A stretch of DNA of 64,000 nt from Octopus sinensis (lineage: Eukaryota). Positions 5,339-60,724 of the stretch are shown one piece after another. The translations under genes were made by a program, and so were the position numbers. The stretch spans positions 806,001 to 870,000 of the forward strand of contig NC_043008.1 in NCBI RefSeq assembly GCF_006345805.1, in the 5' to 3' direction. The notes under the pieces were generated by a model that was not told the DNA's origin, ran no database searches, and saw only the letters and a program-made list of their open reading frames with translations. Numbering within the stretch: the stretch's first letter is position 1; each line of letters starts with the position of its first letter.

Positions 5339-5772
5339 AAATACATGTAGTTCTGTTGGAATGTAAGCCGGAAGATATACGAACATTTCGGCGACCATCC
5401 AAATAACCGTTCTTTTTTTTTCATTTAAGTTCCCCTGAGAGTTCGGTACACATCTGACCCAATGGTTCTGAGAAGCAATTAATGGCTGGCTCATAGGAGT
5501 GTCTGTTCATGTCCCTCGACTAAGAGTAGTAATCGTTAAAAAATTACACGCATGATTATCATAGTATATGAATTAAGAAAATCTAAAATGGAGGTTATAC
5601 CTAGAATGTTTGAAGCGTATGTTCTTTCTATAGAAGAACGCTTGATTTAAAATAATTCGAAAAGAACAGCGGATTTAAGTGCGGTAGAGCTGAGTTGAGT
5701 AAAATAGTGCAGAGGACGGAGAATGGGGAGTGAATCGGGGAGATACGAAATGTGAAAGAATTTTATGTAAAA

Positions 5773-6169
5773 CTAGCAGTATCGCCCGGCGTTGCTCGGG
5801 TTTGTAAGGGAAATAACTATATAAGCATTTTTAGAGAGTTATAGCAAAAAAATAGCAAAAAATGCATTAAAAATGGAAAAAAAATGATGGTAAATTTTTT
5901 TTTTAAATCGTTGACTCCTCGTAGACATTTTTAGAGAGTTACTTCCCTTATATAATAGCGAAAAAATGCATTAAAATGGAAAAAAATGATGGTAATCTTT
6001 TTTTAAATCGTAGACTCATCGTAGACGCGCGCTAATACCCAGAAGGGCTCGATATGAATCACGACTATAAGATACCCGGTTTTGGTTAAACTGCACCGCA
6101 AAATGTGGGAGTAGTTAGGAATCTAAATCGTAGGAGACAGACACAAAACTTCACTTTTATATATAAAGA
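5773..6169 (-). mobile_element. Non-autonomous Helitron
   Basis: On the minus strand it starts TC (TCtttatatataaaag) and ends with hairpin cccgagcaacgccggg then ...CTAG; it sits between host A and T with no TSD and has an internal ~100 bp tandem duplication. Confidence 0.85.
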
Positions 6170-6198
6170 TATGATAAGAGTATAATTTTTAAATGGAA

Positions 6199-6740
6199 GA
6201 AGGCGGTGAGCTGGCAGAAACGTTAGCACGCCGGGTGAAAGGCTTAGCGGCATTTCATCTGAGTTCAAATTCCGCCGAGGTTGATTTTGCCTTTCATCCT
6301 TTCGGAGTTAATTAAATAAGTACCAGTTACGCACTGGAGTCGATGTAATCGACTTAATTCGTTTATCTGTACTTGTTTGTCCTCTCTGTGTTAGCCCTTT
6401 GTGGTTAGTAAAGAAATAGGTATTTCGTCTGCCGCTACGTGCTGAGTTCAAATTCCGCTGAAGTCGACTTTGACTTTCATCCTTTCGAGGTCGATTAAAT
6501 GAGTACCAGTTACGCACTGATTCGATATAATCGACTTAATCCGTTAGTCTCTCCTAGTTTGTCCTCTCTGCGTTTAGCTCCTTGTGGGTAGTAAAAAAAT
6601 AAGTATTTCATCTGAGTTCAAATTCTGCCGCGGTCAACTTTACCTTTCATCCTTTCGGGGTCGATAAATTAAGTACCAGTTGCGTACTGGCTACCCCTCC
6701 CCCAAAATTTCGAGCCTTGTGCCTCGAGTAGAAAAGAATA
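6199..6740 (+). mobile_element. SINE family A head-to-tail trimer (two long tails, final short tail)
   Basis: Units at about 6199-6420, 6421-6603 and 6604-6740; whole array flanked by direct repeat tttaaatgga (6188-6197, 6741-6750). Confidence 0.9.
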
Positions 6741-6867
6741 TTTAAATGGAGAGAATTGAAGTGTAACGAAAGTGTAATTATGATATTTGAGAGGAGGAGG
6801 GAGAACAGAAATGCAACATGGCGGAATGTAAACTATGGTAGTGTAATATTTGGGTTGAGGTAAGGAG

Positions 6868-7041
6868 ATGAGCTGGATGAAACCACGCCGGGCAAAAAGC
6901 TTAGCAGCATTTTGTCCGTCATTACGTTCTGAGTTCAAGGTTGACTTAACCTTTCATCCTCTTGGGGTCGATAAAATAAGTACCATTTGAGCATCTACTC
7001 CCATGAAATTGCTGGCCTTGTGCCAAAATTTGAAAGCAATA
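6868..7041 (+). mobile_element. SINE family A, degenerate
   Basis: gagctgg...cacgccgggcaaaaagcttagc...ttctgagttcaa...ggccttgtgccaaaatttgaaa. Confidence 0.8.
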
Positions 7042-7569: not shown

Positions 7570-7778
7570 TATTTCTTTACTACCAACAAGGGGCTAAACA
7601 CAGAGGGGACAAACAAGGACAGACAAACGGATTAAGTCGATTATATCGACCCCAGTGCATAACTGGTACTTAATTTATCGAATCCGAAACGATGAAAGGC
7701 AAAGTCGACCTCGGCGGAATTTGAACGCAGAACGTAACGTCTACGCATTTCGCCCGGCGTGCTAACGTTTCTGCCAGC
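7570..7778 (-). mobile_element. SINE family A, long-tail form
   Basis: Reverse complement ends ...tctgtgtttagccccttgttggtagtaaagaaat. Confidence 0.9.
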
Positions 7779-36122: not shown

Positions 36123-36360
36123 GAAGGTGTTTATAAACCATTTGAAACATACAAAAACCGTAAGATGCACTTCAACATTTAAATTTAATTTGTGAAAAAA
36201 GTTTCGTCGCTTTGAGACCGTGACCTGTTCACTACACGGAAGGTAGTCAGTGAACAGGTCGCGGTCTCAAAGCAACGAAAATATTTTCACAAATTAAATT
36301 TAAGTGCTGAAGCGTATATAACGGTTTTTGTGTGTTTTCAAATGGTTTATAAACACCTTC
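36123..36360. mobile_element. Inverted-duplicated short element, each arm with a hammerhead-like motif (G3-C8 core)
   Basis: Arms 36123-36233 and 36249-36360; right arm reads gtca GTGAACA g gtcgc ggtctcaaa gcaac GAAA ATAT TT (left arm has gcgac, giving a perfect stem II). Confidence 0.75.
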
Positions 36361-36361
36361 T

Positions 36362-36622
36362 ACTCAGAACGTAGCGGCAAACGAAATACCTGTTTTTTTA
36401 CTACCCACAAGGGGCTAAACACAGAGAGGACAAACAAGGACAGACAAACGGATTAAGTCGATTATATCGACCCCAGTGCGTAGCTGGTACTTAATTTATC
36501 GATCCCGAAAGGATGAAAGGAAAAGTCGACCTCGGCGGAATTTGAACTCAGAACGTAACGGCAAACGAAATACCGCGAAGCATTTCGCCCGGCGTGCTAA
36601 CGTTTCTGCCAGCTCGCCACCC
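36362..36622 (-). mobile_element. SINE family A long-tail form plus start of a second unit
   Basis: Reverse complement ...gtgggtagtaaaaaaacaggtatttcgtttgccgctacgttctgagt. Confidence 0.9.
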
Positions 36623-44474: not shown

Positions 44475-45037
44475 GAGTAGTACCTGTATTTCAAAGGGCC
44501 AGCCTTGTCACATTCTGTGTCACGATAAATACCCCTGACATCTACGTTAATGGTATCTGTGTCTGTGGCGAGCTGGCAGAAGCGTTAGCGCGCCGGGCGA
44601 AATGCTGAGCGGTATTTCGTCTGCCGTTACGTTGTGAGTTCAAATCCCGCCGAGGTCGACTTTGCCTTTCATCCTTTCGGGGTCGATTAAATAAGTACCA
44701 GTTACGCACTGGGGGTCGATATAGTCGACTTAATACCTATGTCTGTCCTTGTTTGTCCCCTCTGTGTTTAGCCCCTTGTGGGTAGTAAAGAAATAGGTAT
44801 TTCATCTGTCTCTACGTTCTGAGCTTAAGTACCTTTTACGCACTGGGGTCGATGTAATCGACTTAAGACCTATGCCTGTCCTTGTTTGTCTCCTCTATGT
44901 TTAACCCCTTGTGGGTAATAAAGAATAGGTATCTGTGTCTGTGGAGTACTCAGCCATTGGTACGTTAATTTCACGAGCAGGCTGTTCCGTTTATTGGATC
45001 AACCGGATCTCTCTTCGTCATAACCGGCAGAATGCCA
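44475..45037 (+). mobile_element. SINE family C 3' half interrupted by a SINE family A long-tail dimer (about 44569-44927)
   Basis: 17 bp target-site duplication ggtatctgtgtctgtgg at 44552-44568 and 44928-44944. Confidence 0.9.
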
Positions 45038-45693
45038 GTTTCATATATACATACATATATTTATATATATACACGCACATACATACACTCACATATACAT
45101 ATTCATATACATACACAGATATACGCGCACATAGGCACACATATAAATAAGCTTAATATATTATACTAATCGGGTAGAAGAAAATATCAAATTAGAGGAA
45201 ACATGTTCAACCGGACACAATTTTGTTTCTGCTAAACTGGTTTCATATAACGAGGCACAAACAGCACCATTTTTAGCCGAAAATATATGCGGATAATTCA
45301 AATTTACCCGATTATACAGACACTGCAGCAAATATTTCACTCGTAAATATTTGGAAATTTAAATACTTTAAAGTTTTCAAAGAATTCTAAATGCTTCTCA
45401 CCTGTTTTGTATTATCAAGAATACATACGATAAGCATAAAATTTGCATTTCTTTTATTTACTTCCGGTTGACTGCGGTTATGAACGTCTGTCTATGACCA
45501 GAGTCACATTTCAGAAATACAATTGTATCCCGGTATGACACACGTATGTTCTAATTCAATACATGTGCGTCGATTTCTCTCTCTCTCTCTCTTTTTTAAA
45601 TTGAGTGAATCGACTTGACAATATATCTCTCTCTGAAACCTCTGTATGAAACACACTTTTGCTTTTCTGTTTACGTACGCATTCCTGATTTAA

Positions 45694-58431: not shown

Positions 58432-60724
<2,293 letters not shown>

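Follow-up and report, generated by a model that had tools for sequence, protein, structure and literature searches.

Fixed-site self-insertion of a young octopus SINE and the probable in-place origin of its head-less multimers

In a 64,000-nucleotide stretch of the Octopus sinensis genome (contig NC_043008.1, positions 806,001 to 870,000; hereafter the window), copies of a tRNA-like SINE with long 3′ tails are followed by further units of the same element that lack a head and restart at one internal motif. The question raised by this locus is how such head-less multimers arise: by insertion of new copies into existing ones, by copying of multimeric RNAs, or by rearrangement of DNA.

The repeat presumably resembles octopus SINEs. 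A-box-like and B-box-like motifs are found in the head of the first unit of a trimer described below, for which ARAGORN returned 0 genes and Rfam 0 tRNA matches. An unselected sample of 160 10-kb stretches (1.6 Mb of the 2.72-Gb assembly) contained 391 SINE units in 354 elements, which are short, dispersed, and of high copy number; exact patterns were counted genome-wide. All positions within the element refer to a 234-nt long-tail consensus built from 65–66 full copies. Long-tail copies form a young family, 5–9% from the class consensus, and copies with short S2 or S3 tails are older (about 16%). Target-site duplications (TSDs) were detected in 26/42 young monomers versus 3/137 mismatched pairs; counts of TSDs and target flanks exclude TSDs of low complexity and elements whose tail was truncated or of unknown type.

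The trimer consists of the following features, in window coordinates:
6184–6197, + strand: left outer TSD of the whole trimer, a 13/14 match to 6737–6750
6200–6419, + strand: unit 1, with tRNA-like head, body, and long tail
6212–6224, + strand: A-box-like motif in unit 1
6263–6272, + strand: B-box-like motif in unit 1
6419–6425, + strand: junction motif GGTATTT (consensus 50–56), the insertion site, containing TATTT
6419–6601, + strand: unit 2, restarting at consensus 50, head-less, with a B box and no A box, a long tail, and no deletion
about 6602–6736, + strand: unit 3, restarting at 50, with a 13-nt deletion and a short S1 tail
6737–6750, + strand: right outer TSD of the trimer

The restart at the internal motif after a long tail, reported in a preliminary description of this DNA, was recovered in units 2 and 3 and in the copies at 36362 and 44797. 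The 13-nt deletion (TTTCATCTGAG) lies at 6253–6263 in unit 1 and at 6606–6616 in unit 3 and is absent from unit 2, as had been noted; the single TSD that brackets the entire trimer had escaped that first account. Among unselected copies the deletion is rare, occurring in 4/297 monomers, 1/84 first units (the trimer itself), and 0/144 later units, a count that excludes trimer unit 3, whose alignment begins at 72. These frequencies in first units and monomers led us to reject the deletion as a junction scar, an idea whose first-unit cases came from query-selected loci. In organism B, the trimer has both of its outer ends. At the trimer, searches for an empty allele among contigs of 4 runs at 97% were swamped by repeat copies and none bridged the element; contigs of 4 runs at 82% gave the same outcome at a second multimer, L281. 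Directly upstream of the trimer (about 5770–6170) lies a high-copy repeat, presumably Helitron-like, with high depth in other runs, and an old short-tail SINE copy is found 110 nt downstream (6862–7040).

Three further copies in the window bear on the question:
36362–36621, − strand: long-tail copy followed by a restart of 29 nt, the variant GTTTG being present in each
44552–44944, + strand: long–long dimer in a 17-nt TSD, inside another repeat family
44567–44927, + strand: the dimer proper, unit 2 internally deleted
7570–7778, − strand: long-tail monomer ending in unique DNA, a counter-example to strict self-targeting

GTTTG does occur in both motif copies of the 36362 element, as first described, yet the two copies diverge 6 nt later; the variant is probably truly shared (13.8% against a baseline of 3.4%). 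A MITE-like inverted-repeat element at 36127–36340 cuts off the second unit of this copy, leaving only 29 nt. The restart at 44797 is real, and no private variant is common to it and its head copy. One TSD (44552–44568 and 44928–44944, starting GGTATCTG), likewise overlooked at first, brackets the whole dimer. Long-tail multimers at window 44480–45040 and at L293 occupy one and the same GGTAT position in a different repeat family, which makes that position a second hotspot.

Genome-wide, the exact joint of tail to GGTATTTCGTCTG occurs 22,573 times and its reversed control 0 times, and the joint at position 50 is therefore not a product of chance. In the unselected sample, 108 long-tail ends (10 short fragments excluded) comprised 29 restarts at 50, 7 restarts at 17, and 72 ends in other DNA; 29 joints per 1.6 Mb extrapolate to about 49,000 in the genome. 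The sequence after long tails, which the preliminary description had singled out as a check, is far from random, and its notion of a self-amplifying safe harbor stands only in part, given the 72/108 tails that end elsewhere. The sites at which about two thirds of long tails end are unique and follow a loose GGTA/AGA/TATA pattern. These unique flanks begin with GGTA, GATA, AGA, AGTA, or TATA, and because the upstream TSD copy begins likewise, the start of the flank is derived from the target. The tail variant predicts the target: T-variant tails adjoin GG/GA in 27 cases and AG in 4, and C-variant tails in 2 and 15, respectively (p = 4e-7). Flanks of T-variant tails match the internal motif through GGTATTT (T in 28, 24, and 26 of 43), and the match is lost at the next base (C in 4/43). 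Another fixed joint lies within the A-box region at position 17 (AGAAACG) and is found mostly with C-variant tails (L008, L009, L029, and L145). Within the consensus, TATTT is the sole terminator-like run before the tail, and two TGTTT runs lie in the tail; in the mammalian tests described in PMC8466645, TATTT stopped 42–50% of transcripts and is a moderate Pol III terminator. Judged from sequence, the SINE RNA may end in GGUAU(UU) and pair with the target.

Direct traces of insertion were sought as a partial head that stops at the site and is followed by a second full head, a pattern with 80 matches genome-wide. The first 30 matches represent 21 distinct loci, sorted by the author's reading into 10 in which a young full copy interrupts an older host, 5 head duplications or arrays, and 6 ambiguous cases. 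At the 10 split-host loci, the host head is 77–92% identical to the consensus and the insert 92–96%, and the older remainder restarts at or just after 50. The SINE inserts into its own family at one fixed base, position 50, and the 10/21 loci read bear out the proposal that new copies enter existing ones at a fixed site. Visible events account for about 1% of joints when calibrated on an antisense site (205/674), the remainder being seamless or inherited. That antisense hotspot, GGTACTT at position 138, has 674 exact tail joints and 205 visible events, and insertion into a reversed copy was found in 10/10 loci read (L251–L260). Tandem arrays of a 65-nt head, up to 5 near-identical repeats, precede a full copy at L226, L228, L234, and L245; those at L226 and L228 lie inside one unique TSD.

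A LINE uses the same base. At L199, a LINE 3′ end is joined to SINE position 50, and 144 exact matches to this LINE tail were found, 127/144 with GTATTT within 3 nt, which supports the site-specific insertion originally suggested. In the loci read (3/3, one being the place of L199), ORF2 lies upstream and the SINE from 50 onward lies downstream. The SINE shares its 3′ tail with two LINE lineages: 36/50 columns are identical to the tail of the position-50 LINE, and the tail of a second LINE matches equally well (35/48 columns). For nicking and reverse transcription, the SINE likely relies on the enzyme of a Tx1-like LINE with which it has both the tail and the insertion base in common. Position 50 is G in 124/124 SINE joints, 74 of which came from G-selected searches, and C in about 60 of 100 LINE joints among the matches listed, a difference that favors pairing by the end of the SINE RNA. 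The GCCGTATTT variant was rejected as an escape allele for the LINE, which often lands there.

A related LINE, L128, encodes Exo_endo_phos (APE), RVT_1, and zf-RVT domains and has a tail in common with the SINE. This LINE mostly adjoins (TATC)n; its upstream 404-aa frame had no Pfam match and is assigned as ORF1 by position only. Among 120 homologues listed, 1 is named TX1 149 kDa (37%) and most are unnamed, and the best solved relative is L1 ORF2p. Architecture, target preference, and the one named homologue suggest membership in the Tx1 group, for which "Tx1-like" is used here. The window contains one such element:
58704–60722, + strand: 5′-truncated Tx1-like LINE, 94% identical to L128, in a (TATC)n/(TCTG)n tract

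About 45 nt of its 3′ tail are in common with the SINE. It is a microsatellite-targeting relative, other than the position-50 lineage. The (TATC)n LINE was also considered as the position-50 partner and is not supported: of 32 pattern matches, 5 were read, and none of these had a LINE upstream.

The model we favor, with a probability of roughly 0.7, is that young long-tail SINEs insert at position 50 (GGTATTT) of older copies with the enzyme of a Tx1-like LINE, the cDNA head annealing to the head of the host. Self-insertion at position 50, the presence of a tail-sharing LINE there, and landings at loose GGTA/AGA/TATA targets in other places are observed directly. SINE RNA would pass through its tail into GGTATTT and stop at TATTT about half the time; its 3′ end would pair with the nicked target, and each landing site would regenerate both the terminator and the aiming sequence. 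At the 5′ junction, annealing of the cDNA head would usually replace most of the host head and sometimes keep a TSD-like copy, and no second head would be added because the new head is annealed to that of the host. Arrays are then likely lengthened by tandem duplication at the DNA level, and read-through dimeric RNAs, as in the trimer, probably contribute as additional templates. Collapse of a 65-nt head duplication after insertion could also yield this product; the arrays at L228 and L245 show that such repeats are unstable. From the sequence, a loop of RNA tag and terminator is plausible. A wider reading, offered tentatively and on balance doubtful, closes the loop entirely: the Tx1-like LINE would parasitize the SINE head, the SINE would borrow that enzyme and thereby home to copies of its own kind, a single 7-nt target would serve as both terminator and aiming tag, and young heads would overwrite old ones through homology-directed 5′ joining, reactivating dead copies and seeding satellites.

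Applied to the trimer, insertion at position 50 most likely means that an S1-tailed host carrying the deletion was struck at 50 with at least 15 nt duplicated, and that, because unit 2 lacks the deletion, the template was a long–long dimeric RNA. The head of unit 1 would then derive from the host and its body and tail from the insert; unit 2 would have arrived on the same RNA as the tail of unit 1, or through later exchange; and unit 3 would be the rest of the host copy. Independent deletions between two TCTG repeats (about a 1% chance) or later exchange are possible alternatives. The idea that the shared deletion reflects a TSD is likely correct for the trimer, and at L241 the same deletion is duplicated on both sides of a visible insert; it does not extend to joints in general.

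Genome-wide, the base at position 60 before and after the tail is T/T in 20, T/C in 125, C/T in 220, and C/C in 6262 cases, so that post-tail GTTTG is mirrored before the insert in 20/240 (8%) against a baseline of 125/6387, which exceeds chance (odds ratio 4.6). Old-type post-tail motifs, read by eye, are mirrored in 6/128. In the unselected sample, first and last units share 4/26 rare variants in positions 52–66 and 12/304 in 67–168. The earlier equation of shared variants with TSDs is therefore not supported as a rule, applying to only about 5–15% of joints, and probably holds for the trimer. The accompanying claim that the new copy acquires the A box of its host is not supported by the data: the insert brings an A box with it, and most heads in old-host multimers are of the young type. 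The old allele at position 21 occurs in 47/128 old-host multimer heads versus 102/118 old monomers, and it is enriched with old-type last units (47/128 versus 14/86, p = 0.001). Roughly, these data imply host heads in about 30% at position 21 and host sequence past the nick in about 5%. The correlation of head with last unit (rho 0.34) is similar to that of body with last unit (0.32); in a first, smaller set it was 0.14 and not significant.

We consider it probable, at much the same level as the model itself, that most multimers form seamlessly in place. The competing view, that most are copies of multimeric RNAs originating from a few hundred visible insertions or from a dimeric master and read through a weak terminator, is unlikely, although it accounts for several observations. 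At 20 old-type joints, young first units (87–97%) are combined with last units that are old and diverse; last units of the L, S1, S2, and S3 types, at 74–94% identity, stand behind young first units, and the post-tail variant rate is 3.6% versus 2.2%. Tails at 19 independent old-type junctions are diverse (median pairwise identity 0.72), and the lack of an old unit common to them speaks against multimeric RNA. L269 was removed from this set as a local duplicate of L268, and pairs with L279 proved to be artefacts of a truncated unit in the tail comparison; L268 and L269, near-identical in multimer and flank, form an inverted duplicate about 7 kb apart. Also against RNA copying, a comparison of the old last units of two seamless loci, L271 and L274, with 40 candidates each yielded neither a source nor a sibling exceeding 75% and 82%, respectively, and no daughter copy of the visible L275 was found. 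Mismatch in the outer TSD is seen in 16/278 multimers with long and 30/277 with short last units (p = 0.03), and in 16/140 ending in S2 or S3 versus 17/129 old and 19/403 young monomers. Formation in place is favored because this mismatch varies with the type of last unit, the old last units of L271 and L274 are sourceless in that comparison, and the old head allele is enriched. Independently of age, however, short-tail ends may raise the number of mismatches counted.

Other observations pull toward RNA templates. TSDs were detected in 8/11 old-host multimers versus 8/25 old monomers, which points to younger TSDs and against in-place formation, and the 80 two-head events among 22,573 joints demand either seamless resolution in about 99% or inheritance of many joints. 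Heads are mostly young and insert-type, which read-through RNA predicts equally well, and trimer unit 2, lacking the deletion, is unexplained by insertion of one monomer. Dimers lie inside antisense hosts at L259 and L260 (2/10), and termination at TATTT is incomplete in mammalian tests (42–50%, PMC8466645). Whole multimers are bracketed by TSDs, but both models predict an outer TSD. Multimers ending in S1 may be in excess (9/26 in exact-joint loci versus 2/28 at random), compatible with a long–S1 dimeric master. A single dimeric master, which the preliminary description had raised together with rolling-circle copying, nonetheless fails, as does the latter, for most dimers, whose last units vary between 74% and 94% and whose long–long type shares 2/61 rare variants.

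DNA-level origins fare differently for long arrays and for dimers. In long arrays, inner neighbors share rare variants across the unit (15/76 and 11/45, null expectations 3.3 and 3.0), and the arrays L287–L289 carry repeated, homogenized variant patterns with first and last units unlike the inner ones. Because inner units share private variants, growth of long arrays by local duplication is likely. That multimers also begin as tandem duplications, between the internal GGTATT and a GGTA-like TSD after the tail, followed by unequal exchange, is improbable, even though unequal recombination was proposed for similar clam arrays (PMC11481361): long–long dimers share only 2/61 rare body variants (null 0.9), one monomer cannot yield long–short dimers, and visible insertions exist. 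Duplication is thus likely true for lengthening and, as the seed, largely refuted by the 2/61. Reverse transcription that runs repeatedly, or by a rolling-circle mechanism, around a single circular SINE RNA would explain the fixed joint, the identical tandem heads at L228 and L245, and the shared variants in some arrays; it is the least credible of these readings and very improbable, since dimer units differ in variants, tail type, and age, and the units at either end of an array are unlike those inside it.

By description, the repeat presumably resembles the octopus elements OR1 and OR2, with a tRNA-like head, a conserved body, and exchangeable tails. The retroelement R2 targets rDNA with a restriction-like endonuclease. 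At R2, homology upstream of the nick allows annealed cDNA to form a seamless 5′ junction without duplication, an annealing shown there by experiment and here only inferred (PMC11331408). In crocodilians, SINEU and Tx1-Mar likewise pair a SINE with a Tx1 LINE at one preferred site within a repeat, with sequential tandem insertions; in that system the elements land in a Mariner transposon and a TSD lies between tandem copies, whereas the octopus SINE is its own target and forms mostly head-less joints (PMC4494074). The Alu hotspot at position 133 is likewise a single-base, sense-biased site of insertion into the same family, with visible nested copies and a bias of about 2.6-fold compared with about 33-fold here (22,573 to 674, arrays included); in addition, a tail-sharing LINE here uses the same base as the SINE (PMC2836564). 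Arrays of the form TSD1-(SINE)n-TSD1 in the blood clam also have one head, head-truncated repeats, and one outer TSD; their inner units lack the tail end as well, the arrays account for about 3% of copies, and unequal recombination was proposed, whereas octopus units have full tails, the joints account for about a third of long-tail ends, and seeding would be by insertion (PMC11481361). Satellites derived from squamate SINEs are similarly tandem repeats of SINE parts, and the account in PMC10702118 describes, in its treatment of them, no fixed insertion-defined joint. OR1 and OR2 are named as CORE-SINEs in PMC4758252, PMC4824008, and PMC5804259, whose passages on them make no mention of multimers.

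Each ingredient thus has a precedent: a target-biased SINE mobilized by a Tx1 element, a self-insertion hotspot, one-head arrays, and annealed junctions. No account of their combination, or of self-insertion of the octopus type, was found in the openly accessible literature. To our knowledge, scarless RNA-templated insertion has so far been shown mainly for R2; if the model is correct, the octopus SINE would represent a natural, genome-scale case in which an APE-type LINE carries out such insertion at a homologous site. It would provide a concrete path from SINE to tandem array, and the division of target choice between the endonuclease and the RNA 3′ end becomes testable. Finally, because these multimers are chimaeric in age, dimer consensuses and divergence dating for this SINE family would mislead.
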